DNA of 64,000 nucleotides from the IMG/VR virus record IMGVR_UViG_2718218131_000002; one strand, 5' to 3'. The notes under the pieces are model-generated. The model was not told the origin of the DNA, did no database searches, and worked only from the letters and a program-made list of their open reading frames with translations. The position numbers and the translations under genes were made by a program. Within the stretch, counting starts at the first letter, position 1; every line of letters begins with the position of its first letter. Source of the stretch: a virus (Duplodnaviria; Heunggongvirae; Uroviricota; Caudoviricetes). Below are positions 817-63,980 of this stretch, one piece after another.

Positions 817-945
817 TCAGCCGTTAGATTTTGCCGAACTGGAAAGCGCCTGTTTAAATTCGTTGAAGCTGAGAGCTTCTTCGCCTTCGGCAAGACCTTC
901 GAAGTATTCTTCGTAAGCCTTTTCCATGATTGTGTCGAAATCCAT
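817..945 (-). CDS. ydfB: YdfB-like small acidic protein (42 aa)
   Basis: Unlisted minus-strand ORF MDFDTIMEKAYEEYFEGLAEG...; its length and position match ydfB in Qin. Confidence 0.4.
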   Translation of the reverse strand: MDFDTIMEKAYEEYFEGLAEGEEALSFNEFKQALSSSAKSNG

Positions 946-946
946 A

Positions 947-1102
947 TCACTCACCTGAGTTTCTTTCCAGCCAGCGACGGGCACCATTTTCGGTTTTAAA
1001 CGTTTTGCTTTTGGTATACGTCATCGCGGTGAACGTACCGTCCTGGTTGGGAAACACGCCGTACACCAGAGATTCGTTGTTGCCAAGATCGATAGTATCC
1101 AT
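947..1102 (-). CDS. ydfA: YdfA-like small protein (51 aa)
   Basis: Internal start MDTIDLGNNESLVYGVFPNQDG... gives 51 aa, immediately downstream of dicA. Confidence 0.45.
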   Translation of the reverse strand: MDTIDLGNNESLVYGVFPNQDGTFTAMTYTKSKTFKTENGARRWLERNSGE

Positions 1103-1182
1103 GCTGACCTCATTTCCCCTTAACGCTGGGGTAGCGGAACTGTTTGCTGAGAACACCGTGCGGTGTGTTGATGCAAATAAGA

Positions 1183-1234
1183 TTAGCCATGGCTAACATA
1201 TAGGTCAAGTGATTTTGTATGTTATGGCTAACAT
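1183..1234. promoter_or_regulatory. Operator-like palindromes (TTAGC-N4-GCTAA type) in the dicA to ydfA intergenic region, probable dicB-operon promoter/operator
   Basis: Perfect palindrome TTAGCCATGGCTAA at 1183-1196 and a related copy at 1219-1234; the same motif recurs in the dicA/dicC intergenic region. Confidence 0.4.
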
Positions 1235-1268
1235 GATTGATGTGGTAAAAGATAACTCATTGATGATG

Positions 1269-1676
1269 TTATCTTTTATTTGTCCGCTGACGGGCTTTTA
1301 GTAATTCTTCAAAGAGTTTATTGAAGTTTTTTACTCGAGCTCGCATTTCGGCGAGCTGGGTATCCTGTTCTGATTCTGGCAGTGCATTAAACAGCTCAAG
1401 GAGCTCTAGTTCTTTGGGGGATAAGGCAACTGGCTTCTCAACAGGTGGTGTTGGTTGCTTGTCTTCATCGCCAAATAGAATCCATGTTGGTGAGCATTGC
1501 AATACTTTGCTGAGGGCAAAAAGGTTCTTCCCTGTAGGTTCACTATCATCCCGTTCCCATTGTGATACAGACACATGGGAGATTTTCAGGGCTTTAGCAA
1601 GAGACCTTTGGGTGTGTTTGAGGTTTTTCCGACGATACCTAATGCGTTCGCCGATAGTTAAATTTTTTGTTTCCAT
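1269..1676 (-). CDS. dicA: DicA, XRE-family HTH repressor (cI-like immunity repressor of Qin-type prophage)
   Basis: 135-aa ORF METKNLTIGERIRYRRKNLKHTQRSLAKALKISHVSVSQWER... with an HTH_XRE motif, divergent from dicC. Confidence 0.85.
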   Translation of the reverse strand: METKNLTIGERIRYRRKNLKHTQRSLAKALKISHVSVSQWERDDSEPTGKNLFALSKVLQCSPTWILFGDEDKQPTPPVEKPVALSPKELELLELFNALPESEQDTQLAEMRARVKNFNKLFEELLKARQRTNKR

Positions 1677-1678
1677 AG

Positions 1679-1742
1679 TTAGCTAATGCTAAATCGTATT
1701 GACTATGTTTTTGTTAACATCTATTTTGTTAGTTATGACTAA
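1679..1742. promoter_or_regulatory. Divergent dicA/dicC promoter-operator region with TTAG(C/T)-N4-(G/A)CTAA palindromes
   Basis: TTAGCTAATGCTAA at 1679-1692 and TTAGTTATGACTAA at 1729-1742, between divergently oriented repressor genes. Confidence 0.4.
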
Positions 1743-1759
1743 CAATAAAGGTGTTTTAA

Positions 1760-1990
1760 ATGCTTAAAACTGACGCTCTTTTGTATTTCGGTTCAAAAAC
1801 AAAACTTGCACAAGCAGCAGGTATTCGTTTGGCTTCGCTTTATAGCTGGAAAGGGGATTTAGTTCCCGAAGGTCGCGCGATGCGTCTACAGGAGGCATCT
1901 GGCGGGGAGCTTCAGTATGATCCCAAAGTTTATGATGAATATCGTAAGACGAAGCGGGCGGGGCGGTTGAACAATGAAAATCACTCCTGA
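1760..1990 (+). CDS. dicC: DicC, Cro-like regulator
   Basis: 76-aa ORF MLKTDALLYFGSKTKLAQAAGIRLASLYSWKGDLVPEGRAMRLQEASGGELQYDPKVYDEYRK, divergent from dicA. Confidence 0.8.
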   Translation: MLKTDALLYFGSKTKLAQAAGIRLASLYSWKGDLVPEGRAMRLQEASGGELQYDPKVYDEYRKTKRAGRLNNENHS

Positions 1991-2495
1991 ACAGGCTCGT
2001 GAGGCTCTGGATGCCTGGATATGTCGACCAGGAATGACACAGGAGCAGGCGACGATATTAATCACTGAAGCATTCTGGGCTTTGAAAGAGCGCCCGAACA
2101 TCGATGTTCAGCGTGTCACAGATGAAGGTGGCGCGGTTGATCAGCGAGCGCTTGGCGTTAATCGAGTGAAGATATTCGAACGCTGGAAGGCTATCGACAC
2201 CAGGGATAAGCGTGAAAAGTTCACGGCGCTAGTGCCTGCGATTATGGAGGCTATCCGGATTAGTGATTTCAGGTTGTATCGTGAGATCAGTGATGGAAAA
2301 AGTATTACGTACATGATCGCCGGGTTAAATAAAGAATATGGCGATGTGGTGGAATCCGGACTGCTTTTTGCAGATCCTGCCGTTGTAGATCGTGAAACTG
2401 ACGAACTTATAGAAAAAGCAATTGCTTTCAAGCTTGCGTATCGACAGCAATACCAACAAAAAGCTGGATGGAATTATGAGTCTTCTTTTTGCTGA
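1974..2495 (+). CDS. YdaT-like prophage protein (DUF1019-type), function uncertain
   Basis: 173-aa ORF directly after the cro-like gene; central segment ERWKAIDTRDKREKFTALVPAIMEAI resembles recalled YdaT. Confidence 0.4.
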   Translation: MKITPEQAREALDAWICRPGMTQEQATILITEAFWALKERPNIDVQRVTDEGGAVDQRALGVNRVKIFERWKAIDTRDKREKFTALVPAIMEAIRISDFRLYREISDGKSITYMIAGLNKEYGDVVESGLLFADPAVVDRETDELIEKAIAFKLAYRQQYQQKAGWNYESSFC

Positions 2496-3390
2496 ACGCC
2501 CACTGGTTATAAACACGCAGCTGGCAATGAAAATTGGCTTAAACGAAGCCATTGTTTTGCAACAACTGCACTACTGGTTGAGAGATACCAACTCCGGCAT
2601 GGAATGTGATGGTGTTCGCTGGATTTATAACACAACGGAACAATGGCTGGAACAGTTCCCATTCTGGTCAGAGTCAACGTTAAAGCGCGCGTTTGCAAGT
2701 CTGAAAACGCTGGGGCTTTTGCGTTGTGAAAAGCTCAATAAATCAAAGCGCGATATGACCAATTTCTACACGATCAACTACGGGAGCGAGCTTTTAGATG
2801 GTGGCAAATTGAGCGAATCCATCGGTTTAAAATGCGCCGCTCCATCAGGTCAAAATGACACGATGGAAGAGGTCAAAATGAAACGCTCCATTGGTTCAAA
2901 ACGACTCAATGTCATCGGGTCAAAATGGCCTGATGATCTTACAGAGAATACAACAGAGATTACTACAGAGAATAAAAAGACTTCTCGTCCGGAAGCTTCG
3001 CAACCGGACCCGCAGACGGTTGAACAGGATTTTTTAACCCGACACCCTGACGCGGTTGTGTTCAGTGCGAAAAAACGCCAGTGGGGCAGCCAGGAAGATT
3101 TGGCGTGTGCGCAGTGGATCTGGGGGCGAATCGTGAGTCTTTACGAGCAGGCCGCCAGCGATGATGGCGAGATTTCGCGACCGAAAGAACCCAACTGGAC
3201 CGCATGGGCCAACGACGTGCGCACAATGCGGATGCTGGATGGCAGAACTCACAGACAAATTTGTGAAATGTTTGGTCGGGTGCAGCGGGATCCATTCTGG
3301 GTAAAAAATATCATGAGTCCGTCAAAGCTTCGCGAAAAATGGGATGAACTGGTTATCCGCCTGGGCGTTCGTCTGTACAGCGTTGTGTGA
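2476..3390 (+). CDS. Phage replication initiation / replisome-organiser protein (N-terminal HTH, DnaT-like C-terminal region)
   Basis: Probable start at MSLLFAERPLVINTQLAMKIGLNEAIVLQQLHYWL...; occupies the position of the lambdoid O gene. Confidence 0.55.
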   Translation: MSLLFAERPLVINTQLAMKIGLNEAIVLQQLHYWLRDTNSGMECDGVRWIYNTTEQWLEQFPFWSESTLKRAFASLKTLGLLRCEKLNKSKRDMTNFYTINYGSELLDGGKLSESIGLKCAAPSGQNDTMEEVKMKRSIGSKRLNVIGSKWPDDLTENTTEITTENKKTSRPEASQPDPQTVEQDFLTRHPDAVVFSAKKRQWGSQEDLACAQWIWGRIVSLYEQAASDDGEISRPKEPNWTAWANDVRTMRMLDGRTHRQICEMFGRVQRDPFWVKNIMSPSKLREKWDELVIRLGVRLYSVV

Positions 3391-3480
3391 ATCATATTTC
3401 TGAGCCGGATACCGAAATTCCGCCGGGCTTCAGGGGGTAAGTGTTAATTTCTGGTCATGAGGTAATTTTCAGGAGGGCTT

Positions 3481-3903
3481 GTGGCAAAAGTTTTTACACA
3501 AGAAGAGCGGGAAAAAATTAAAGGGCAGGTTGTTGAACTCGTACGCCGGAGTGGGCGTGAGACGTTACGGCAACTGGAAGTCAAGACAGGTGCGACAAGA
3601 TATCTGATGAGCGTTCTCGCAAGAGAGCTGGTTGCCAGCGGCGATGTATACAACTCTGGTTACGGGTTATTCCCGTCTGAACAGGCGCGTAAGGACTGGC
3701 AAAATGCCCGTAAAAAGCTCTCAAGGGCAAAGCTGAAGGAACCATCTGCGGTTGATCCGGACCTTATCTGGTCATTACCTGACGGAGAAATACGTCGCTA
3801 CGACAGGCGTCAGAACATAATCTGTCGCGAGTGCCGGAAGAGTGAAGTTATGCAGCGCATACTAGCATTCTATCAGGGAAATGCTCGATATTTATTGAAG
3901 TGA
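3481..3903 (+). CDS. Hypothetical phage protein (140 aa, GTG start)
   Basis: ORF of typical GC content after the replication gene; no recognised motif. Confidence 0.35.
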   Translation: MAKVFTQEEREKIKGQVVELVRRSGRETLRQLEVKTGATRYLMSVLARELVASGDVYNSGYGLFPSEQARKDWQNARKKLSRAKLKEPSAVDPDLIWSLPDGEIRRYDRRQNIICRECRKSEVMQRILAFYQGNARYLLK

Positions 3904-4155
3904 TGAGATTAAAGTTTATTAGTTCAGATATTGATTGGCTCTTTTGTGGAGTAGGGTAGAGTTAGTGTGTTTGTCTGCTTGGTGCCAGCAGCGGATATGT
4001 TTAACAACAGAAAGCATTCAGCATGGTTAGTGGATTTGCAAAGTGGATTAGGATTTGAGAAACTTTGATGAAGTTGTAAAGCTTGTTTCTATAAAAATAG
4101 AAATTTAACTAATAGTTAAACACACCTCCAGCTTCATTGAAAAGGATTATTAGCT

Positions 4156-7267: not shown

Positions 7268-7472
7268 ATTGGCGAGGTAACGGTAGTTAAGTAGAATTGC
7301 TGCGGGTGCTTGAGGCTATCTGCCTCGGGCATCAACACCAAAGGCAGATAGAGAAAAGCCCCAGTTAACATTACGCGTCCGGCAAGACGCTTAACATTAA
7401 TCTGAGGCCATATCTATGCTCTACACACGTAGGTTAGCCTCTTACGTGCCGAAAGGCAAGGAGAAGCAGGCT

Positions 7473-7628
7473 ATGAAGCAGCAAAAGGCGATGTTAATCG
7501 CCCTGATCGTCATCTGTTTAACCGTCATAGTGACGGCACTGGTAACGAGGAAAGACCTCTGCGAGGTACGAATCCGAACCGGCCAGACGGAGGTCGCTGT
7601 CTTCACAGCTTACGAACCTGAGGAGTAA
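7473..7628 (+). CDS. hokD: Hok/Gef-family type I toxin (51 aa), HokD/RelF-like, with an in-frame Mok-like upstream extension from 7416
   Basis: MKQQKAMLIALIVICLTVIVTALVTRKDLCEVRIRTGQTEVAVFTAYEPEE; structured leader upstream; terminator downstream. Confidence 0.8.
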   Translation: MKQQKAMLIALIVICLTVIVTALVTRKDLCEVRIRTGQTEVAVFTAYEPEE

Positions 7629-20344: not shown

Positions 20345-20671
20345 ATGACTAAAAATACTCGTTTTTCCCCCGAAGTCCGTCAGAGGGCGATTCGTATGGT
20401 TCTGGAAAGTCAGGGCGAATATGACTCACAGTGGGCGGCAATTTGTTCCATTGCCCCAAAGATTGGCTGTACACCGGAGACTCTGCGTGTCTGGGTACGC
20501 CAGCATGAGCGGGATACCGGAGGCGGTGATGGCGGGCTCACCACCGCTGAACGTCAGCGTCTGAAAGAGCTGGAACGTGAAAATCGTGAACTGCGCCGCA
20601 GTAACGATATCCTTCGCCAGGCTTCCGCTTATTTTGCAAAGGCGGAGTTCGACCGCCTCTGGAAAAAGTGA
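20345..20671 (+). CDS. IS3-family transposase OrfA (108 aa)
   Basis: [55 protein letters not shown]. Confidence 0.85.
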
Positions 20672-21558
20672 TGCCACTGCTGGATAAGCTGCGTAAGCTG
20701 TACGGGGTCGGACCGGTATGCAGTGAACTACATATTGCCCCGTCAACGTATTACCACTGTCAGCAACAGCGACATCATCCTGATAAACGCAGTGCCCGTG
20801 CGCAGCGCGATGACTGGCTGAAGAAAGAGATACTGCGCGTATACGATGGGAATCATCAGGTATACGGTGTGCGTAAAGTCTGGCGTCAGTTGTTACGGGA
20901 AGGAATCAGGGTAGCCAGATGTACAGTGGCGCGCCTCATGGCGGTTATGGGACTTGCCGGTGTTCTCCGGGGTAAAAAGGTCCGCACTACCGTCAGCCGG
21001 AAAGCCGTTGCCGCAGGCGACCGCGTAAACCGTCAGTTTGTGGCAGAACGTCCTGACCAGTTGTGGGTGGCTGATTTTACTTACGTCAGCACATGGCAGG
21101 GGGGCGTCTATGTGGCGTTCATCATTGATGTGTTTGCCGGATACATCGTGGGGTGGCGGGTCTCATCGTCTATGGAAACGACATTCGTGCTGGATGCTCT
21201 GGAGCAGGCGTTATGGGCCCGTCGACCGTCCGGCACAGTCCATCACAGTGATAAAGGTTCTCAGTATGTATCGCTGGCCTACACACAGCGGCTTAAGGAA
21301 GCCGGATTACTGGCATCAACAGGAAGTACTGGTGACTCGTATGACAACGCGATGGCGGAGAGCATCAATGGCCTTTACAAAGCGGAGGTAATACACCGTA
21401 AGAGCTGGAAAAACCGGACAGAAGTGGAGCTGGCCACACTCACGTGGGTGGACTGGTATAACAATCGACGATTGCTGGAAAGGCTGGGCCATATCCCACC
21501 GGCAGAAGCAGAAAAAGCTTATTATGCTTCCATCGGAAACGATGATCTGGCAGCCTGA
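20668..21558 (+). CDS. IS3-family transposase OrfB (296 aa; DDE integrase core)
   Basis: Overlaps orfA in the -1 frame; DDE catalytic region. Confidence 0.85.
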
Positions 21559-21686: not shown

Positions 21687-21698
21687 GGGCGGCGACCT
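21687..21698. other. cosN cohesive-end site of the prophage (lambda-type)
   Basis: GGGCGGCGACCT followed by CGCGGGTTTTCGCTATTTATGAAAATTTTCCGG, matching the lambda left end, about 180 bp upstream of Nu1. Confidence 0.75.
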
Positions 21699-55053: not shown

Positions 55054-55427
55054 TTTTTTTCGTGTTTTTTCAGTATGCGCATACTGGATAAGTGCACAGA
55101 TACAACGTGAAACAATACGCAACAACGTGAAACAACCACGAACAAGAGGCCAAAAAGTATACAGATTTATAAGTTGCTGATTTTTAATGATCAACTGGTT
55201 TTTTATACATTAGCGAATAACGCTTTAAATAGTGAGAAAAAAGGCATAAAACGAGATTTTATGCCTTTGCATAACACTGAATTAAAATATATTTTATTAA
55301 AATAACCCCGTTTCTGTAAAATACCCGCCACCAACATTTGCCAACTCTGAATCACCCTGACACAATCAGACACATCCCAACGCAATAGAACACGAAATAA
55401 CTCTTTAAGAAACGAAAGGGGGCAATA

Positions 55428-55616
55428 GTGTTAAGCACTGATCGGTTTATACGTGAAAAAGAATGCGAAAAGCTAACAGGCCTTAGCCGCTCATGCCGCT
55501 ACCGCCTGGAAAAGGCCGGACAATTCCCATCACGGCGTAAGCTGGGCGGTCGTTCCGTTGGCTGGTCTTTATCCGAAGTTCTGGCATGGAAGGACAGCTG
55601 CGAGGCAGTTCACTAA
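55428..55616 (+). CDS. alpA: AlpA-family phage regulatory protein (excisionase-like HTH)
   Basis: 62 aa LTGLSRSCRYRLEKAGQFPSRRKLGGRSVGWSLSEVLAW. Confidence 0.55.
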   Translation: MLSTDRFIREKECEKLTGLSRSCRYRLEKAGQFPSRRKLGGRSVGWSLSEVLAWKDSCEAVH

Positions 55617-55943
55617 TCAGGCTGGCGGCACACAGCCGCCACGCATCCACTAATACAGAGATCTAACCATGAATACTGGATATACGCCCGAACAGGGGCG
55701 GGGCTTCGTTCGGCCTGGTGAAACTGAAAAACAACAAAATCGCGGTTTTTCAGACATAAAAAAAGCGGCCCCGATAAGGAGCCGCCTTTCTGAACAATTA
55801 ACCTACTGCGCAAAAAATGAATCTGAGCAGGGGAATTATATCAGCCAGGTGACGAAGCGCCACAATTGCCGGATAACGGGCAAAGAAAAGGCCACCTGTC
55901 ACGGTGGCCAATGTGATCAGTGTGGTGGTTTGCTGGTGGATTG

Positions 55944-56123
55944 TCAGCCTTTTGGCACAATACCGCGCTGTTGTAATTCTTTACGGATTATTCGCTTTAT
56001 CCAGGCAGCAAGAGAATCATCGCCGTCCTGTTGTTGTGCTTTTTCCATCTTTTCCCGTAAGTCAGGATCTAAACGAAACTGGAACGGAGGATTACCACGC
56101 CTTTCGTTTTTGTGTGTTGACAC
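55944..56123 (-). CDS. Ribbon-helix-helix small DNA-binding protein (unlisted 59-aa ORF, GTG start)
   Basis: NPPFQFRLDPDLREKMEKAQQQDGDDSLAAWIKRIIRKEL; GAGGTG ribosome-binding site upstream. Confidence 0.4.
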   Translation of the reverse strand: MSTHKNERRGNPPFQFRLDPDLREKMEKAQQQDGDDSLAAWIKRIIRKELQQRGIVPKG

Positions 56124-56630
56124 GTTAATTACACCTCATGTAATGTATTTATGTGTAGTGACACATTACACACAATCAGCACAAAAAGCAAAGCCCCGCA
56201 AGTGTCGTTACCACTGGCAGGGCTTATAACCACAAACCGTTATGAGAGGTAGTTTTATGGCTGTAAGACAGCATACCCCACGCCTAGCGCACACACAAAC
56301 GGCCTTTGTGTGGCGTAATCGATTTCATGATTTCACTTTTCACAATCAGCCAGGCGGTCGGTTTTTGCCGGATTTAAGCCGCCGTGGGTATTTATCGACA
56401 AAATCTTCAAGGGCAAATTTTTCTGGTGGCACTAAGCGCGGCGCTGGTGGTGGTATTTTTGTTCTGGTTAGTTCTTCCTCAAGTCTGGCGCAGGCTTCTG
56501 ACTGCCTTTGCCGGATGATTTCATCATCTTGCGTTTGCGTGTCTTGTATTGGTGATAGTGTGTTGTTGGTCATGATACTGCCCTGTAAAGCAATGCGCCG
56601 TAGTACCTCACACCACGGCGCTAGTGATGG

Positions 56631-56810
56631 TTACTCCTGCTCTTTGGCCTTCCTGCGCTGGCGGCGTTTGATCTCGCCTTGCATTGACGCAATGATGAAT
56701 TGTGATGTGCTTTCGCCTGATTCTTTCACTAATTCCATGGCGTTTACTATTTCGTGTGGTACACGAGCCTTTAGAGCTTGTGATTTTGCGTTTGTTGTAC
56801 CCGTTGCCAT
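56631..56810 (-). CDS. Ribbon-helix-helix-like small protein (59 aa)
   Basis: MATGTTNAKSQALKARVPHEIVNAMELVKESGESTSQFIIASMQGEIKRRQRRK; AGAGGA ribosome-binding site. Confidence 0.4.
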   Translation of the reverse strand: MATGTTNAKSQALKARVPHEIVNAMELVKESGESTSQFIIASMQGEIKRRQRRKAKEQE

Positions 56811-57005
56811 TTCTATTCCTCTGTTGGATTGGTGGGGGACAGTATACACAGAAAAAGCACAAATAAAACCCTTGACGTGGACCACACCTAAAGAATATAG
56901 TGGGCCACACCTTAAGGTTGTCAAGGTGCATAAATGCAAAGCCCCGCAAGTGTCGTTACCACTCGCAGGGCTTATAACCACAAACCGTTAACAGGAGTAA
57001 CGATT

Positions 57006-57203
57006 ATGGCTGGAACACAGCATACCCCACGCCTTGCGCACACACAAACCGCCTTTGTGTGGCGTTTTCTGGCACTGAGTGCCGGAGAATCTCAAATTAT
57101 CCACGTGACCGCCTGGACGGAACGCGAAGCGCGTAACCGTTGCCCGTCCGGTTGTGTCGCTGTATTCGCCGCCCGTATTCGTCAGGAGGTGTGCCATGCC
57201 TGA
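57006..57203 (+). CDS. Hypothetical small protein (65 aa) downstream of the second copy of a duplicated leader
   Basis: AGGAG ribosome-binding site; N-terminus MAGTQHTPRLAHTQTAFVWR is shared with a paralogous start at 56257. Confidence 0.3.
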   Translation: MAGTQHTPRLAHTQTAFVWRFLALSAGESQIIHVTAWTEREARNRCPSGCVAVFAARIRQEVCHA

Positions 57204-57516
57204 TATGTCAAATTACCAGTACCTGATTAATCCGCATTTTAACTGTGAGCATGATATTGCTAAAAAGGTTTATTCTGCTGCGGATGAGGCTACTGACAAT
57301 ATATCAATGGCTGTTGCGTCAATTGGTAGCCTGATGTGGTATGCGTCAGAAAATGAGGAATATGACGAAAAGGCTATGCGCATTGACATGGGGAATATTG
57401 GCTTGTTACTGGCAATGCTTGGGCAGTTTGATATTTCGTTACGGTGCACCATTGAAAATGCCACAGATGCATTAAATGCCATAAAGAAAGCGAATACTGA
57501 TTCAAATCGGGGATAA
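57196..57516 (+). CDS. Hypothetical protein (106 aa)
   Basis: Strong AGGAGG ribosome-binding site before ATG (MPDMSNYQYLINPHF...). Confidence 0.4.
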   Translation: MPDMSNYQYLINPHFNCEHDIAKKVYSAADEATDNISMAVASIGSLMWYASENEEYDEKAMRIDMGNIGLLLAMLGQFDISLRCTIENATDALNAIKKANTDSNRG

Positions 57517-57522
57517 ATAATC

Positions 57523-57822
57523 ATGAGAACATATTTATCTGGCTTGACTGCCAGCGGTTATGCACACCCAAAAATTATCCCCGGCGCTATTTATCTGGAT
57601 AAGAACGGTAACAGAGTAACGGTAAAAGAACTGATGTTTGACCGTGTTTATTTTATTCGTGATGGATATTCATTTCTTAGTTCGCTGAACGTGGAGATCT
57701 TTATTTGCAGATTCCGGCGGGAAATCCCGACTTCCAGAAATAACCATGTGTCACGTGTGGATGTGGATAAAAAACTACAGGAACTGAAAAACATGATTGC
57801 CGCGTGGAGAGAGCAGAAATGA
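57523..57822 (+). CDS. Hypothetical protein (99 aa)
   Basis: ORF tightly packed between the neighbouring genes; overlaps the primase start. Confidence 0.35.
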   Translation: MRTYLSGLTASGYAHPKIIPGAIYLDKNGNRVTVKELMFDRVYFIRDGYSFLSSLNVEIFICRFRREIPTSRNNHVSRVDVDKKLQELKNMIAAWREQK

Positions 57823-59636
57823 AAAAAGCGCCAAATTTAAAACACCAGCCGCGTGACAAAATGACGGAAGTCATCATTTTTGCGGGTAGTGATGCGTGGG
57901 CACATGCGAAGCAGTGGCAGGAACAGGACGGGCGACTGGCTGGCGATAACGTGCCACCTGTCTGTCTTGGAGAGCAACAACTTGCCGAACTGGACAACCT
58001 GCAAATCGTACCGGACGGACGCTATCGCGTGCGTCTCTACCAGGCGGGGTTATTGCGTCCGGGGCTTGTTAATACCATCGGGCAGAAACTGGCAGCGGCA
58101 GGTGTCAGGGATGCTGATTATTACCCTGAAGGAATGCACAGCCAGAAACGGGAGAACTGGCGCGAATATCTGGAACGTGAACGGGCAGAGCAGGCGGAAA
58201 AGAAAAAGGTAGTTGAACTGCCTGTAAAGAAAAAAGAGCGGGTAAAAGACGATAACGCTTCATCACTGGCGCTTAACCAGATGGGAGCAAGTCAACGCGG
58301 CGAAGTTCTCCTGGCACATTATGGCGGTGAACTGGCGATTCATGCTGACTCTGACACTGTTCACCATTACAACGGCGTTGTATGGGAGCCAGTACAGGAT
58401 AAAGAATTACAGCGAGCTATGGCACAGATTTTCATTGATGCGGAGATCAGCTATTCGCAGAACGCCATTAAATCGGCGGTCGATACCATGAAGTTAAGTT
58501 TGCCTGTAATGGGGAATACAGCCCGTAACCTGATTGGATTCAGTAACGGGGTATTTGATACCAGAACAGGTAATTTTCGGGAGCATAACAAAAACGACTG
58601 GTTGTTAATTGCCAGTGAATTACCTTTCAGCCCACCAGCAGAGGGGGAAACGCTGGCAACACATGCGCCGAATTTCTGGAAGTGGTTACGCCGTTCGGTG
58701 GCTGAGAATGACCGCAAGGCGGATCGCGTACTGGCTGCATTATTCATGGTGCTGGCGAACCGGTACGACTGGCAGTTATTCATTGAGGTAACAGGTCCAG
58801 GGGGAAGTGGTAAAAGCGTGATGGCGGAGATTTGCACCATGCTGGCGGGTAAGGCTAATACAGTATCAGCGAGCATGAAGGCGCTGGAAGATGCAAGGGA
58901 ACGCGCGTTAGTGGTTGGCTTTTCGCTGATTATCATGCCGGATATGACCCGCTACGCTGGTGATGGGGCGGGAATTAAGGCTATTACAGGCGGTGACAAG
59001 GTGGCAATCGACCCAAAACATAAAGCCCCATATTCAACTCGTATCCCGGCAGTAGTGCTGGCGGTTAACAATAACGCTATGTCATTCAGTGACCGCAGTG
59101 GGGGGATCTCACGTCGTCGGGTGATATTCAATTTTTCGGAAGTTGTACCGGAGAACGAACGTGATCCAATGCTGGCGGAAAAAATAGAAGGTGAGCTGGC
59201 GGTAGTGATTCGCCATCTGCTTACACGGTTTGCTGACCAGGACGAAGCCAGACGCCTGTTATATGAGCAGCAGAAATCTGAAGAAGCACTGGCGATAAAG
59301 CGAGAGGGGGATTCGCTGGTGGACTTCTGCGGCTATCTCATGGCGTCGGTAATGTGTGATGGCCTGTTAGTGGGTAATGCTGAAATTGTGCCATTCAGCC
59401 CACGCAGGTATCTCTATCATGCCTATCTGGCTTATATGAGGGCACATGGGTTTGGTAAACCTGTAACACTGACGCGCTTCGGTAAAGATATGCCGGGGGC
59501 AATGGCGGAATATGGCAGGGAGTATATGAAACGGAAAACGAAGCACGGTTTGCGTTCAAACGTGACACTGACGGAGGAATCAGAAGACTGGATGCCATCA
59601 TGTGTATCGGTCACTAATGACGATAGCAAAAATTAA
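57819..59636 (+). CDS. P4-alpha-type primase/helicase (satellite replication protein)
   Basis: Walker A GPGGSGKS in the C-terminal half; primase-like N-terminal region; followed by TGTTCACC iterons. Confidence 0.8.
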   Translation: MKKAPNLKHQPRDKMTEVIIFAGSDAWAHAKQWQEQDGRLAGDNVPPVCLGEQQLAELDNLQIVPDGRYRVRLYQAGLLRPGLVNTIGQKLAAAGVRDADYYPEGMHSQKRENWREYLERERAEQAEKKKVVELPVKKKERVKDDNASSLALNQMGASQRGEVLLAHYGGELAIHADSDTVHHYNGVVWEPVQDKELQRAMAQIFIDAEISYSQNAIKSAVDTMKLSLPVMGNTARNLIGFSNGVFDTRTGNFREHNKNDWLLIASELPFSPPAEGETLATHAPNFWKWLRRSVAENDRKADRVLAALFMVLANRYDWQLFIEVTGPGGSGKSVMAEICTMLAGKANTVSASMKALEDARERALVVGFSLIIMPDMTRYAGDGAGIKAITGGDKVAIDPKHKAPYSTRIPAVVLAVNNNAMSFSDRSGGISRRRVIFNFSEVVPENERDPMLAEKIEGELAVVIRHLLTRFADQDEARRLLYEQQKSEEALAIKREGDSLVDFCGYLMASVMCDGLLVGNAEIVPFSPRRYLYHAYLAYMRAHGFGKPVTLTRFGKDMPGAMAEYGREYMKRKTKHGLRSNVTLTEESEDWMPSCVSVTNDDSKN

Positions 59637-59647
59637 ACTTATGGAAT

Positions 59648-59880
59648 AACTGTTCACCACTGTTCACCCTGTCATAAATATCTTTTGTATCAGTATGTTA
59701 TAGGGTGAACAGTTATTTATGAACTGTTCACCAAACTATTCACTGTTCACCTTTTTGATTGTTTATTGAGCTTCAAGGGTGAACAGTGGTGAACAGTTGG
59801 TGAATAGTTTTTGTGAAACTGTTCACCCCTTAACATTATGAATTAAAAGATAAAATATCAAAAGGTGAACAGGTGAAGGG
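59648..59880. repeat. Iteron array (replication origin) with at least 8 copies of TGTTCACC / GGTGAACA
   Basis: ACTGTTCACC at 59650 and 59660, inverted copies at 59704 and 59778-59809, further copies to 59879; immediately after the primase gene. Confidence 0.75.
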
Positions 59881-59923
59881 TTAAAACGCAAAAATTTTAA
59901 TTTACTGCTGTGAGATAAAGCCT

Positions 59924-60169
59924 ATGACAGCGAAGCACATAAAAAAATCACAATCGCACGCCCTTGATTTGACGGAACACTGGTTAAGGGTGTCGATAAA
60001 AATCATCGACCGCAACGCCGGGGAAGGATATGCGAAAGCACATCCCGAACTGATTAGCGCATTCATGACAACGGCAGCTGCAAACTTTGCCACGCTGACA
60101 GAACGGGAGATTGCCGAAGCGGAACAGGTGACAACCATCAATGTTAAAACCGGAGAGCAGACAGCATGA
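59924..60169 (+). CDS. Hypothetical protein (81 aa)
   Basis: ORF overlapping the next gene start by 4 nt. Confidence 0.35.
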   Translation: MTAKHIKKSQSHALDLTEHWLRVSIKIIDRNAGEGYAKAHPELISAFMTTAAANFATLTEREIAEAEQVTTINVKTGEQTA

Positions 60170-60588
60170 CAGCACAGATAGCGGCTTACGGGCGGCTGGT
60201 GGCTGACCCGCAGTTAAAGACCACCAGCAAAGGGACACAAATGGCGATGGCGAGTATGGCGGTTCCCCTGCCGTGCAGCCAGGCAGATGACGGAACGGCG
60301 ACGATGTGGTTATCCGTCCTGGCGTTTGGCAGACAGGCCGACGCACTGGCAAAACACCACAAAGGCGAATTGGTGAGCGTGGCGGGTAACATGCAGGTAA
60401 GCCAGTGGACAGGCCAGAACGGCGAAACGCGGCAGGGCTGGCAGGTTATCGCAGACAGTGTAATCAGTGCGCGAACGGCGCGACCGGGCGGCAAAAAAGG
60501 CCAGCAGGGGCAGGCCACTGACGCACTGAACAGGGCAAAACAACAGTCGGGGAATGATGATCCGTACGGCGATAATATACCGTTTTAA
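60166..60588 (+). CDS. Single-stranded-DNA-binding (OB-fold, SSB-like) protein
   Basis: MTAQIAAYGRLVADPQLKTTSKGTQMA...WLSVLAFGRQADALAKHHKGELVSVAGNMQVSQW has an SSB-like pattern; Gly/Gln-rich acidic tail ending DDPYGDNIPF. Confidence 0.5.
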   Translation: MTAQIAAYGRLVADPQLKTTSKGTQMAMASMAVPLPCSQADDGTATMWLSVLAFGRQADALAKHHKGELVSVAGNMQVSQWTGQNGETRQGWQVIADSVISARTARPGGKKGQQGQATDALNRAKQQSGNDDPYGDNIPF

Positions 60589-60800
60589 ATTCTGCAAACA
60601 AAAAGATGCCGGAAAAAAAATAGATTTTCCGGCATGCTACATAAATCCCGACCAAAGGAAGTAAATACATTAACACGAATTATCAGCACTGAAGTTGTCA
60701 CGGCATATTTTATACAACATTGCACTTGGTTGCATGTATTCGCATAGCAGACATCGGTAATAGAATATATTCACAATTATTTGTAATGAATGTAAAGAGG

Positions 60801-61847
60801 ATGAGTATGGTTGACTTATATTCGCCTACACAGCTTGTGCAGGTGGCTAATGCTGAAGATGTGCAAAAAAAATTAAATGCGTTGTTTACCAGTTTGTTTT
60901 TCACTCGCTCGGTAATGTTTGAATCGAGAGACATTATTCTTGATACGATCGACGATCCAAATATCCCGATCGCGGCGTTTTGCTCTCCTATGGTGGGCAG
61001 TAAAGTTTCACGAGATGAGGGATACGAATCAAAAACAATTCGCCCTGGCTATATGAAACCGAAAAGCAGCATTGATCCAAATAAGTTAGCTGTGCGCCCT
61101 GCTGGTGTATCACCTGAGCAATACAATGCTTTTGGAGCGCGTAATATTAAAGTTAAACAGGCGATTGTAAATCAGGCTAAAGCTATTCGTGCACGTATTG
61201 AATGGCTTGCCGTTCAGGCAATCACAACGGGGAAAAATATCATTGAGGGCGATGGCATTGAACGTTATGAACTGGACTGGAATATAAAACCACAAAATAT
61301 TATCACGCAGTCCGGCGGTGCTGAGTGGTCAGGTAAGGATAAAGAAACTTTTGATCCAAATGATGATATTGAGAGCTACGCAGAATTTAGTGAGGGCGTC
61401 ACTAATATCATCATTATGGGCGGTAATGTATGGAAGAAATACCGTTCATTCAGAGCGATAAAAGAGGCTCTGGATACCCGTCGTGGTTCTAATTCCGAAC
61501 TGGAAACGGCCCTTAAAGACCTTGGTGATTCGGTGAGTTTTAAAGGGTATATGGGCGATGTTGCGATTGTTGTATACAGCGGGCGTTATACCGACGAGGA
61601 CGGAACTGAAAAACATTTCCTTGATCCTGATTTGATGGTGCTTGGCAATACGGCTCTTCAGGGGATTGTCGCCTATGGCGGTATTCAGGATCCGGAGCTA
61701 ATCCGAATGGGGCTGACTAAAGCCGAACTTGCACCGAAAAACTATATTGTGCCTGGTGATCCGGCTATTGAATATGTGCAGACACATTCAGCACCACAGC
61801 CAATACCGGCCCGCATCAATCGTTTTGTTACCGTTCGCATTGGCTAA
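60801..61847 (+). CDS. Major capsid protein homologous to lambda E, carried by the satellite
   Basis: 348 aa starting MSMVDLYSP; conserved blocks TQSGGAEWSGKDKETFDPNDDIESYA and TRRGSNSELETALKDLGDSVSFKGYMGDVAIVVYSGRY parallel lambda E. Confidence 0.8.
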   Translation: MSMVDLYSPTQLVQVANAEDVQKKLNALFTSLFFTRSVMFESRDIILDTIDDPNIPIAAFCSPMVGSKVSRDEGYESKTIRPGYMKPKSSIDPNKLAVRPAGVSPEQYNAFGARNIKVKQAIVNQAKAIRARIEWLAVQAITTGKNIIEGDGIERYELDWNIKPQNIITQSGGAEWSGKDKETFDPNDDIESYAEFSEGVTNIIIMGGNVWKKYRSFRAIKEALDTRRGSNSELETALKDLGDSVSFKGYMGDVAIVVYSGRYTDEDGTEKHFLDPDLMVLGNTALQGIVAYGGIQDPELIRMGLTKAELAPKNYIVPGDPAIEYVQTHSAPQPIPARINRFVTVRIG

Positions 61848-61856
61848 GGGGGAGCA

Positions 61857-62198
61857 ATGGCTACTCATTACACTGAACTCATGGCTGGCACTGAAGCACT
61901 GGTGACTACGCTGGGGATATTTTCAGCTAATAAAGGGGTAATTCCTGCATTTACGCCACTGATGCAGGAAGATGCAACAGGTGCACTGGTGGTATGGGAT
62001 GGTTCGAGCGTAGGTAAAGCGGTTTATGTTTCCGCTGTACAAATCGACACCGCGAAAAAAACACAGGCTCAGGTCTATAAGACAGGTGTCTTAAATGTTG
62101 ATGCTCTGAACTGGCCTGAGTCTGTAAAAGAACTGTCAGTAAAGATTGCAGCGTTTGTTGGCTCAGGTATTTCTGTTCAGCCGCTGGCTCGTGTGTAA
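61857..62198 (+). CDS. Head decoration protein homologous to lambda D
   Basis: 113 aa; FTPLMQEDATGALVVWDGSSVGKAVYVSAVQ...AAFVGSGISV parallels lambda D (TPLMLDT...[17 protein letters not shown]...[10 protein letters not shown]). Confidence 0.7.
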   Translation: MATHYTELMAGTEALVTTLGIFSANKGVIPAFTPLMQEDATGALVVWDGSSVGKAVYVSAVQIDTAKKTQAQVYKTGVLNVDALNWPESVKELSVKIAAFVGSGISVQPLARV

Positions 62199-62209
62199 AG
62201 GGGGATACA

Positions 62210-62593
62210 ATGCAGAATCATTACAATGACCTTAAGCCAATTGCCGAAATGATGTATCCGGATCCAGCAGTAGAGGAATTAAAGGCTATTGCTGACAAAA
62301 TGCGTTTAAGTGAACGCCTTGTTGATATGAATCAGGTGATGGAACTTACTACCCTTAGCCGTCGCACATTGCTAAACCTTGAGGCTCGCGGAGAGTTCCC
62401 CGAACGCGTACAGGTTACGGAAGGGCGTAAGGCCTGGTATTTAAGTGAAGTGATCGACTGGATAAACAATATTCCTCGATCTTCTGAATATTGCCGCGTA
62501 CCTGTCCCAAAAAAGCCAGATGCGGCGCTATGCCTCAAGATTGAGCGTGTACGTCGCAATGCACGGGATGGTCGCTATAAGTTGATTGGTTGA
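62210..62593 (+). CDS. Hypothetical protein with AlpA/MerR-like HTH in its C-terminal half
   Basis: LTTLSRRTLLNLEARGEFPERVQVTEGRKAWYLSEVIDWI. Confidence 0.4.
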   Translation: MQNHYNDLKPIAEMMYPDPAVEELKAIADKMRLSERLVDMNQVMELTTLSRRTLLNLEARGEFPERVQVTEGRKAWYLSEVIDWINNIPRSSEYCRVPVPKKPDAALCLKIERVRRNARDGRYKLIG

Positions 62594-62649
62594 TGAAATT
62601 AGGGCCCGTTCTGGCTGGCGGGTCCTTTCCGGCGATCCGGTAGGCTACG

Positions 62650-62661
62650 GGGCGGCGACCT
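62650..62661. other. cosN-like site of the satellite
   Basis: GCGGGTCCTTTCCGGCGATCCGG...ACGGGGCGGCGACCT...GTTTTCGCTATTTATGA closely matches the prophage cos at 21650-21720, then diverges. Confidence 0.65.
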
Positions 62662-62794
62662 TGCGCGTTTTCGCTATTTATGAGCCTTTTTCGGGTGCTG
62701 GTGGTGGTTTTGTTGTTCGCTCTATCTCTATGAATAAAAAGGAAAAGATAAAACCAATACACCAACCTGAAACATTACTTAAGTGGGGATATTG

Positions 62795-63337
62795 ATGAAA
62801 TCGTACCTGATGAACAAAAAAAACATGGCGCAAAGCTGCCGTGTAAGTGCGACAGCGTTCGACAAGTGGGGAGTGACTCCCGTTGAACGTAAAGGCCGCG
62901 AGGCGTTTTATGATGTTGCCAGCGTAATAGACAATCGGGTTAGCAATGCAATTAACCAGATTACAGACGACAAAGGCGAGATTGATAATGATGAACTTTT
63001 ACGAGTCAGGATCAGATTACTGACAGCACAGGCGGAGGCGCAGGAACTTAAAAACGAGCGCGATCGCGGTGACGTGATTGATACAGAGTTTTGCATGTAC
63101 GCGCTTTCAAAACTGGCGAGTCAGATTTCATCAATCATGGACAGCCTCCCGCTTACTATGCAAAGGAGCTTCCCACAGATGGCCCCCGCCATGCTGGATG
63201 GCCTGAAAAAAGAAGTTGTCAGAGCCTGTAACGCATGCACAAAACTTGATGAAAACATCCCGCGAATACTGTCCGATTATCTGATGGAAACTACCGGAAA
63301 TGTGCCTGATAAGTTTCAGCCGGATAAAGACAAGTAA
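62795..63337 (+). CDS. Nu1-like terminase small subunit encoded by the satellite
   Basis: C-terminal two-thirds parallel lambda Nu1 (LTAQAEAQELKNERDRGDVIDTEFCMYALSKLASQISSIMDSLPLTMQRSFP); N-terminal DNA-binding part divergent. Confidence 0.7.
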   Translation: MKSYLMNKKNMAQSCRVSATAFDKWGVTPVERKGREAFYDVASVIDNRVSNAINQITDDKGEIDNDELLRVRIRLLTAQAEAQELKNERDRGDVIDTEFCMYALSKLASQISSIMDSLPLTMQRSFPQMAPAMLDGLKKEVVRACNACTKLDENIPRILSDYLMETTGNVPDKFQPDKDK

Positions 63338-63348
63338 CGTAGCGCACA

Positions 63349-63630
63349 ATGACAGAAGCCGAACTACTGGGATTAATCCGCCGTGTTACCGGAATCAGCC
63401 AGCAGCATGACGAACAGGCCACGCAGCCGGACAGCGTGATCGCCGAAAATTACGTGCGTGTTGTTGCTGATGTAATGCGCCGTGATGGTATTGAGTTTAA
63501 CGGCGTGGATATGCGCGACATACGAATCAGAGTACTAGAGTTGCTGGCATACCGTCGACGCGTGGCGATGTATCAGGAGAGCGCGAAAAACACTTATCAG
63601 TGGAAGAAGCCGGAACGGCTGCGGCGGTAA
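63349..63630 (+). CDS. Hypothetical protein (93 aa)
   Basis: ORF following the Nu1-like gene where lambda would have terminase A; far too short to be a large terminase. Confidence 0.35.
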   Translation: MTEAELLGLIRRVTGISQQHDEQATQPDSVIAENYVRVVADVMRRDGIEFNGVDMRDIRIRVLELLAYRRRVAMYQESAKNTYQWKKPERLRR

Positions 63631-63639
63631 CTTGCTGAT

Positions 63640-63980
63640 ATTCCCGATAACGCAAAATTGCGTTGGCTGGCAAAGTGCAAAATTGCACGATGGCCTAACC
63701 CATTGATTATTTCGAAAACCTGCAATGCAGGAAATCGGGGAAGTAAGCCTAAGCTATTGATTCTTTCGGAAACCTCAATTTGAGGAAGTCGGCGCGGTAA
63801 CTCGCTGAACTTAAAGCAAAGCTCAAAATTGAGCTGGCTGAATAATCATTATGATTACGCAGATGATTAAGGAATGACCGAAGGCGGAAATTCGCCTGTG
63901 GTTGATGGGGGAGTTGCAGATCTGCAACTCGACCATGAAACTACGGAAACTACCCGTAGTTTGGGTAGTAAGAGTAACAC
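63640..63980. repeat. Array of short hairpin-forming palindromes with an A/T core (N3-5 AAAATT N3-5 type) embedded in longer direct repeats
   Basis: CGCAAAATTGCG, GCAAAATTGC, GCTCAAAATTGAGC, CCTCAATTTGAGG, GGCGGAAATTCGCC, TTGCAGATCTGCAA, CTACGGAAACTACCCGTAG; units GCAAAG..CAAAATTG..CTGGC recur three times. Confidence 0.5.

Follow-up and report, generated by a model that had tools for sequence, protein, structure and literature searches.

An inverted pair of P4-type iteron units as the probable replication origin of an EcCICFT073-family chromosomal island

The closest described counterparts of the DNA considered here are the replication origins of the satellite phage P4 and of the phage-inducible chromosomal islands (PICIs). 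The P4 octamer and the P4 ori are already known, as is the location of a PICI origin 3′ of rep. The octamer also occurs in a second P4 element, crr, a cis-acting enhancer at which replication does not start. In the P4 record X51522, the octamer TGTTCACC carries the annotation 'ori type 1 repeat'; ori (9310-9413) contains six copies, and each 120-bp repeat of crr contains five. Binding of the initiator, alpha, to both elements is taken from this annotation, from PMC2777425 and from established knowledge. Alpha itself combines a DnaG-type primase, a superfamily 3 (SF3) helicase and a winged helix (PMC2777425). For Gram-negative PICIs, PMC6092414 locates the origin directly beyond the 3′ end of rep and describes two sets of iterons around an AT-rich region, and it summarizes Gram-positive PICI origins in similar terms, with iteron sets around an AT-rich region 3′ of the rep helicase gene. 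According to the same paper, a rep-ori segment of EcCICFT073 maintains a plasmid, and loss of either rep or ori impairs that maintenance (Fillol-Salom et al. 2018, PMC6092414).

The subject of this analysis is an array of TGTTCACC octamers near one end of a 64,000-nt stretch of DNA, referred to below as the window, from the IMG/VR record IMGVR_UViG_2718218131_000002 (Caudoviricetes). The 230-bp array very probably serves as the replication origin of an E. coli PICI of the EcCICFT073 family, an element of 10.5 kb that is inserted between roxA and phoQ. The best-supported reading of the sequence is an iteron origin whose sites would be recognized by the winged helix of an SF3 helicase that loads itself, because the 12 sites of the array are colinear with P4 ori, the adjacent Rep protein is homologous to alpha, the iterons are conserved, and the layout is that of the tested EcCICFT073 origin. 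An initial annotation of this DNA had described a P4-type iteron origin that supported a P4-family replication module and marked the origin of a satellite. That interpretation is partly supported: it appears largely correct, but the type of element, the layout of the origin and the name "primase" all need to be revised.

Architecture of the array and its relation to P4 ori and crr

The array spans 229 bp (59651..59879) and contains 12 octamer sites, nine of which are exact copies of TGTTCACC and three of which are degenerate, so that the initial count, at least eight copies in both orientations over some 230 bp, was true and slightly conservative. An exact search places copies on the plus strand at 59651, 59661, 59725, 59744 and 59820, and on the minus strand at 59704, 59778, 59788 and 59864. 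The degenerate sites, all in register, are TATTCACC at 59799 on the minus strand, with one mismatch, and TATTCACT at 59737 on the plus strand and CCTTCACC at 59872 on the minus strand, each with two. The window holds 16 exact matches to TGTTCACC on its two strands, compared with 1.97 ± 1.23 in dinucleotide shuffles (n = 100), none of which reaches 16 (0/100), and nine of the 16 fall within 59651-59871. The array lies in an intergenic region (59637-59900), the only sizeable gap in a unidirectional operon. It begins 14 bp past the TAA stop codon of rep (59634-59636), and the initial annotation was right to put it immediately downstream of that gene, which it called a primase gene.

Counting and phasing of the octamers, which had been proposed as a check, resolves the 12 sites into two inverted six-site units. 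The left unit (59651..59751) has sites at 59651+, 59661+, 59704-, 59725+, 59737+ and 59744+, in the strand order + + - + + +, and reads on the minus strand as the reverse complement of the P4 ori arrangement. The right unit (59778..59879, plus strand) has sites at 59778-, 59788-, 59799-, 59820+, 59864- and 59872-, in the order - - - + - -, and is colinear with P4 ori. Start-to-start spacings, most of which are near whole helical turns, are 10, 43, 21, 12 and 7 in the left unit, 34 between the units, and 10, 11, 21, 44 and 8 in the right unit. A central spacer (59752..59777) separates the two, and the dyad centre is near 59764/59765. Folded as a single strand, the array gives one long hairpin (-55 kcal/mol, z = -9.6), which is the same dyad symmetry viewed in another way. 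Each unit also contains an AT-rich spacer that is a candidate unwinding element: in the left unit at 59669..59703 (~75-80% A+T), and in the right unit at 59828..59863 (80-85% A+T), where it is the positional homologue of the AT-rich stretch of P4 ori. The sequence of the left spacer varies among relatives, with the iterons on both sides retained. The lone plus-strand iteron of the right unit carries a conserved 3′ extension, TGTTCACCCCTTAACAT (59820..59836, plus strand), which is mirrored at 59695-59711 and has TGTTCACCCTTTAAC as its counterpart in P4 ori.

The relationship with P4 ori extends beyond the octamers. A blastn search against phage records matches the right unit to P4 ori (P4 9304-9378) with 78.7% identity over 75 nt (E = 4e-6), and it also finds vB_KppS-Ant, an 'induced prophage' record of 16.5 kb, with a match that covers 86% of the query. 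A multiple alignment of P4 ori, both halves of the array (the left one reverse-complemented) and both halves of the Ant region shows that all five are one unit of ~110 bp, which runs from three inverted octamers through a spacer, TGTTCACCC(N)TTAAC and an AT-rich stretch to a pair of inverted octamers. The two island units are 72% and 75% identical to P4 ori, the latter value being that of the reverse-complemented left unit against P4 9306-9417, where shuffled sequences give 53.8 ± 2.9 and reach 62.5 at most. Against P4 crr, the identity is only 58-60%, near the shuffled null. The octamer is of the P4 ori type, as had been claimed, and in the comparison with ori and crr that had been suggested it is ori that the units match.

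Both the likenesses and the differences are specific. P4 ori has the same octamer, and its six sites (---+--) follow one another in the same order and orientation, with a single site on the opposite strand; its spacings are 10/11/22/43/10 against 10/11/21/44/8 in the right unit, the AT-rich stretch and the TGTTCACCC-TTAAC extension are common to both, and the cognate proteins share a helicase and a winged-helix origin-binding domain. However, P4 has a single unit, which adjoins sid some 4 kb from alpha and is accompanied by a separate crr, whereas the island has the unit twice, inverted, at one locus directly after rep, and its initiator is without the recognizable Zn-ribbon/Toprim primase of alpha. 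The array resembles crr in its location directly 3′ of the initiator gene, its octamer and its two repeated units, but crr consists of two direct 120-bp repeats 60 bp apart, with a different arrangement of 5′ sites. The bipartite P4 layout, ori plus a distant crr, is not found in the island, where there is no octamer cluster other than the array (53777-64000), and no copies of the P4 type II repeats (three 10-bp repeats beside ori, CAYTTAAAG-type) occur in 53700-64000. Of the P4-family replication module that had been proposed, then, the octamer, the ori-like unit and the SF3 helicase with its C-terminal origin-binding domain are all present, but the split into ori and crr is absent.

Isolated octamers occur elsewhere in the window. 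One exact copy lies inside rep (58358, plus strand), 32 bp from an inverted one-mismatch copy (58326, minus strand; together 58326-58365); this pair could be a chance occurrence or an internal Rep site. Beyond the island, exact copies start at 11390, 16350, 28926, 37192, 41396 and 44217. The seven exact copies outside the array, that in rep included, exceed the approximately two expected for the whole window, probably because the octamer contains common codons (GGT GAA / GTG AAC) that dinucleotide shuffles do not preserve. The possibility that the array is a cos/pac or att site was also considered, but both cos (62650) and att (53777) map elsewhere, and it was rejected for that reason.

The Rep protein, the island family and its distribution

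The rep gene (57819..59636, plus strand), annotated as 'DNA primase family protein', encodes a 605-residue protein (610 residues from an alternative GTG start at 57804) that is the proposed initiator and helicase. Pfam detects D5_N, DUF5906 (the SF3 ATPase) and Pox_D5, there is a weak match to PPV_E1_C, and the NCBIfam model TIGR01613, 'primase, P4 family, C-terminal', scores under its cut-off. By BLASTP, residues 150-600 are 51% identical to residues 320-771 of P4 alpha (E = 7e-164). The D5_N and SF3 ATPase core (58302..59117, plus strand) has a Walker A motif (GPGGSGKS) and a double-arginine RR motif, both conserved between the two proteins. The C-terminal winged-helix origin-binding domain (59307..59597, plus strand) is homologous to that of P4 alpha, for which a solved structure, PDB 1KA8, is matched by residues 497-593 with E = 1.7e-24.

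The N-terminal part of the protein is a different matter. The domain itself (residues 1-125; 57819..58193, plus strand) has no family match, the first ~145 residues give no Pfam or NCBIfam matches, and hhalign finds no significant similarity between the N-domain family and the primase region of alpha. The predicted fold is TOPRIM-like, but the E...DxD signature is absent from the family alignment, and the domain is swapped among relatives. The architecture of full-length alpha is thus present only as helicase and winged helix, with its Zn-ribbon/Toprim part missing by Pfam, NCBIfam and hhalign, and on these grounds the designation of Rep as a primase is regarded as unproven. The name arises because the 'P4-family primase C-terminal' model covers the helicase part, and the 'DNA primase' annotations on such Rep proteins have no recognizable primase domain behind them. 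The gene that the initial annotation called a primase gene does encode an alpha-like helicase and winged helix.

The three domains of Rep differ in their affinities. The N-domain is 70% identical to that of the CFT073 Rep and has no significant similarity to P4 alpha; the SF3 ATPase is 56% identical to the CFT073 protein and 66% identical to alpha; and the winged helix is 32% identical to the former and 48% to the latter. EcCICFT073 has a different iteron, TGTCTACC rather than TGTTCACC, so the DNA-binding domain appears to track the iteron and not the island family, as expected if the winged helix reads the octamer. A P4-type pair of initiator and iteron is well supported by these comparisons. 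Given the differing iterons, and given DNA-binding domains that are 32% identical next to N-domains that are 70% identical, the island can be interpreted as an allelic specificity variant of EcCICFT073 whose code coincides with that of P4.

In other respects EcCICFT073, the prototype Gram-negative PICI from CFT073, is closely similar. Its roxA/phoQ attachment site and its gene order are those of the island, and its origin occupies the corresponding gap downstream of rep, with AT-rich cores and with matches to the left unit and to the outer pairs of the right unit. A scan allowing one mismatch recovers ten of the 12 expected sites in the EcCICFT073 gap, and the remaining two were read by eye; the third and fourth sites of the right unit are only weakly recognizable. 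The array likewise follows rep directly and has two iteron sets with AT-rich DNA, as in the Gram-negative PICI origins described above.

The element as a whole belongs, from its gene content, to the EcCICFT073-family PICIs. The initial annotation was right to see a satellite, but not a P4-like one, because sid, delta, psu and epsilon are not found, and the roxA/phoQ site, the gene order and the cos site fit the EcCICFT073 type. In tblastn searches, P4 Sid, Delta, Psu and Epsilon have no match in 53001-64000; 59 P4-like control loci were matched. The core set of P4-like satellites comprises int, psu, delta and sid together with alpA, epsilon and alpha (PMC8628076), of which psu, delta and sid are missing here. 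Instead, the island has the PICI order int - alpA - ... - pri-rep - ori, unidirectional, in 10.5 kb between 26-bp att repeats; an EcCICFT073-type PICI is expected to measure ~10-15 kb (PMC6092414).

This origin is common. It is present in 686 of 5426 complete E. coli genomes (~13%), with an identity of at least 95% in 540 of these, and an O157:H7 island has a version that is 82% identical, after rep and before the gene for a single-stranded DNA-binding protein (SSB). A scan of IMG/VR for TGTTCACCNNTGTTCACC, an octamer pair, yielded at least 120 loci. Among the matches listed, 45 of 48 PICI-like loci have a single array of 190-240 bp, at a median distance of 14 bp from rep, whereas in P4-like loci a cluster the size of ori adjoins sid and a crr cluster follows alpha by 50-63 bp. 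In these matches the array is invariably accompanied by an intact rep. Conservation is higher in the iteron columns than in the spacers among 36 distinct PICI-type origins, and in nine divergent origins the values are 94.5% for iterons and 73% for spacers (Mann-Whitney p ~1e-17), in a test that is biased by the retrieval of loci through the iteron-pair pattern and by the relatedness of the sequences.

Several of these loci depart from the common arrangement. One IMG/VR contig, L120, encodes an 822-residue, full-length alpha-type protein with Zn-ribbon, Toprim, D5_N, SF3 and Pox_D5 domains (895-3605), and 22 bp past that gene it carries the same origin of 12 sites, doubled and inverted. The doubling can therefore occur without the PICI N-domain, and L120 is possibly an intermediate between the P4 and PICI arrangements. 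In a second type, found in L077 (1250-1351) and also in L011, L021, L040 and L088, six TGTTCACC copies are all direct, as two copies, an AT-rich 45 bp and four copies, upstream of genes for HK97-type capsid, protease and portal proteins; no alpha-type rep was detected in the contig DNA examined. This is perhaps another origin layout with the same octamer, in capsid-forming PICIs. The 10-kb viral contig L017 has the doubled origin twice, at 3882-4102 and 9471-9691, 5.6 kb apart, which could reflect tandem or rearranged islands or the assembly of a concatemer.

A possible mechanism and competing explanations

If the array is an origin, Rep would act as an SF3 hexameric helicase of the D5/P4-alpha type, with its C-terminal winged helix reading TGTTCACC. 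Each six-site unit would be equivalent to the six-repeat P4 ori and could nucleate one Rep hexamer, with six domains for six sites. Two hexamers would then face each other over the dyad as a head-to-head double hexamer and unwind the DNA bidirectionally, and it may be that the inverted pair does locally what P4 does with ori plus crr. The AT-rich spacers inside the units would be the melting sites, and the SSB encoded by the island would coat and stabilize the single strands. Priming would probably be left to host DnaG or a helper function, since Rep is without the DnaG-type primase domain of alpha. After helper-triggered excision, such replication would amplify the island ahead of cos-dependent packaging.

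Other systems offer partial parallels. SV40, with its large T antigen, and the papillomaviruses, with E1, are SF3-helicase viruses that have palindromic origins. Inverted arrays of initiator sites at a dyad, loading two head-to-head SF3 hexamers, may be a feature that the island shares with them, but the origin sequences are unrelated, and for the island double-hexamer loading is something that we only infer. The origins of pathogenicity islands from Staphylococcus aureus (SaPIs) and of other Gram-positive PICIs were reportedly treated by Ubeda and colleagues in 2007. SaPI origins resemble the array in having iterons that flank AT-rich DNA directly 3′ of rep and a self-loading SF3-type helicase (a 7OLA match), but their iterons and DNA-binding domains are unrelated, and the SaPI Pri protein is a separate primase of the archaeo-eukaryotic (AEP) type.

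Some observations weigh against the origin as pictured here. The agreement between six sites and a hexamer is numerology at present. The array occupies the place of P4 crr, an enhancer, so one of the units could be auxiliary. Two of the 12 sites, those with two mismatches each, may be non-binding. DnaA boxes, IHF consensus sites and GATC are absent from the origin region, and a scan of 59400-60100 predicts neither a sigma-70-like promoter nor a terminator. The retrieval bias in the conservation test belongs here as well.

It is unlikely that the whole array is a crr-like control element, involved in looping, handcuffing or the control of copy number by Rep, with the true start elsewhere in the island. 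Its place directly 3′ of an alpha-type gene is that of crr, which follows alpha by 50-63 bp in P4-like loci, and the AT-rich core and 3′ iteron pair of crr can be aligned with the array units. However, the identity of the units to crr barely departs from the shuffled null, against 72-75% to ori, the island has no further octamer cluster, and the equivalent segment of EcCICFT073 is a functional ori (PMC6092414). Slightly less probable again is a set of mainly transcriptional operators, through which Rep or another island protein would regulate read-through into the 81-aa open reading frame (ORF), SSB and late genes downstream. The array does occupy the operon's one sizeable intergenic gap, and transcription probably crosses it, since no terminator is predicted; but no sigma-70-like promoter was found there either, an array of twelve sites that has AT-rich cores and is colinear with an established origin is built like an origin itself, and a regulatory side-effect would be compatible with origin function. 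It is very improbable that the array is what a P4-like satellite left behind as it decayed, or a cluster of repeats that arose by chance, with no present function. The octamer and unit are indeed P4-like, but P4 sid, delta, psu and epsilon are not found, hundreds of genomes contain the array in an intact and near-identical form, an intact rep always accompanies it among the matches listed, and chance is excluded by the shuffles.

The reading as a PICI origin also bears on what is already in print. As far as could be checked, it is new that a common PICI lineage uses exactly the code of P4, with a unit homologous to P4 ori DNA, and that this unit is duplicated in inverted orientation. PMC6092414 calls the relation between Pri-Rep and alpha 'distant', a word that understates the relation of Rep to alpha for this PICI lineage; this too is new as far as checked. 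Part of this may nevertheless have appeared in print before, perhaps in Fig. 2a of PMC6092414. The supplements of that paper contain no iteron sequences, and a full-text literature search for the octamer returned unrelated primer sequences only. The conceptual gain is small, given the account of Gram-negative PICI origins from 2018 and the classical work on P4. In practical terms, an origin and its likely initiator-DNA code are now pinned down for a type of PICI that roughly one complete E. coli genome in eight carries, O157:H7, O26 and O121 strains included. This may be useful in annotation, in PICI-based delivery vectors and in predicting replication cross-talk with P4-like satellites that have the same octamer. 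A more speculative and rather doubtful extension is that P4-like elements with P2-type helpers and PICIs with lambdoid helpers, which are unrelated families, share an initiator/iteron code, so that alpha and Rep may fire, titrate or block each other's origins, and that the doubled, inverted origin may be a self-contained element in which the roles of ori and crr are fused, loading a head-to-head double hexamer of an SF3 helicase that has no primase and relies on host DnaG. If true, this would mean cross-family replicon piracy or incompatibility in co-resident cells.

Gene content of the island and its surroundings

The segment from 46512 to 64000 is 100% identical to E. coli PK8241, in which the order is roxA, then int, a helix-turn-helix (HTH) gene and others, Icd-like, DUF4222, 'DNA primase family protein', the gap, a hypothetical gene and SSB, followed by major capsid, head decoration, HTH and terminase small subunit genes, and then phoQ. 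The left attachment site, attL, is the 26-bp direct repeat CGGTGTAGTTAATGGTGTAGTTAATT (53777..53802); its partner, attR, lies ~268 bp past the end of the window in an identical genome (L001), which gives the island its 10.5 kb. The tyrosine integrase gene (53824..55053, plus strand) is followed by a gene for a small HTH protein of the AlpA family (55428..55616, plus strand; PF05930, E = 5e-18). A DUF4222 gene (57523..57822, plus strand) overlaps the start of rep, as it also does in EcCICFT073, and although it stands at the position of the P4 copy-number gene cnr, its product has no sequence similarity to P4 Cnr. Directly 3′ of the array are an 81-aa ORF (59924..60169, plus strand; phrog_1231), which has the same position in EcCICFT073, and the SSB gene (60166..60588, plus strand), part of the replication module.

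The late genes encode a lambda-E-type capsid protein (Phage_cap_E), a gpD-type decoration protein (HDPD) and a Nu1-like protein (Phage_Nu1; 62783/62795-63337), which, with cos, is a late region of the PICI kind. The Nu1-like gene (62783-63337) may encode an Rpp-like redirector of packaging. A second AlpA-family protein, of 127 residues (62210-62593; PF05930, E = 1.3e-8), is encoded between the decoration gene and cos. The lambda cosN 12-mer GGGCGGCGACCT of the island (62650..62661, plus strand) is upstream of the Nu1-like gene, and it occurs once more in the window, in a lambdoid prophage (21687-21698). Around 70 bp at the two copies are near-identical, with a divergent cosB side, and because of this near-identity the neighboring prophage is a candidate helper of the PICI.

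Identity with PK8241 (L128) holds only from 46512 onward. Positions 1-46511 are a related, mosaic lambdoid prophage, in which the late region is ~99.5% identical to that of PK8241 and the early regions differ. The window therefore derives from a different strain within this lineage. Rfam has no match anywhere in the island; in the prophage it identifies DicF, sok, three tRNAs (Met, Arg, Arg), STnc100 and an IS3-type ALIL frameshift pseudoknot, at 175-226, 7304-7478, 13949-14195, 14274-14464 and 20626-20742.
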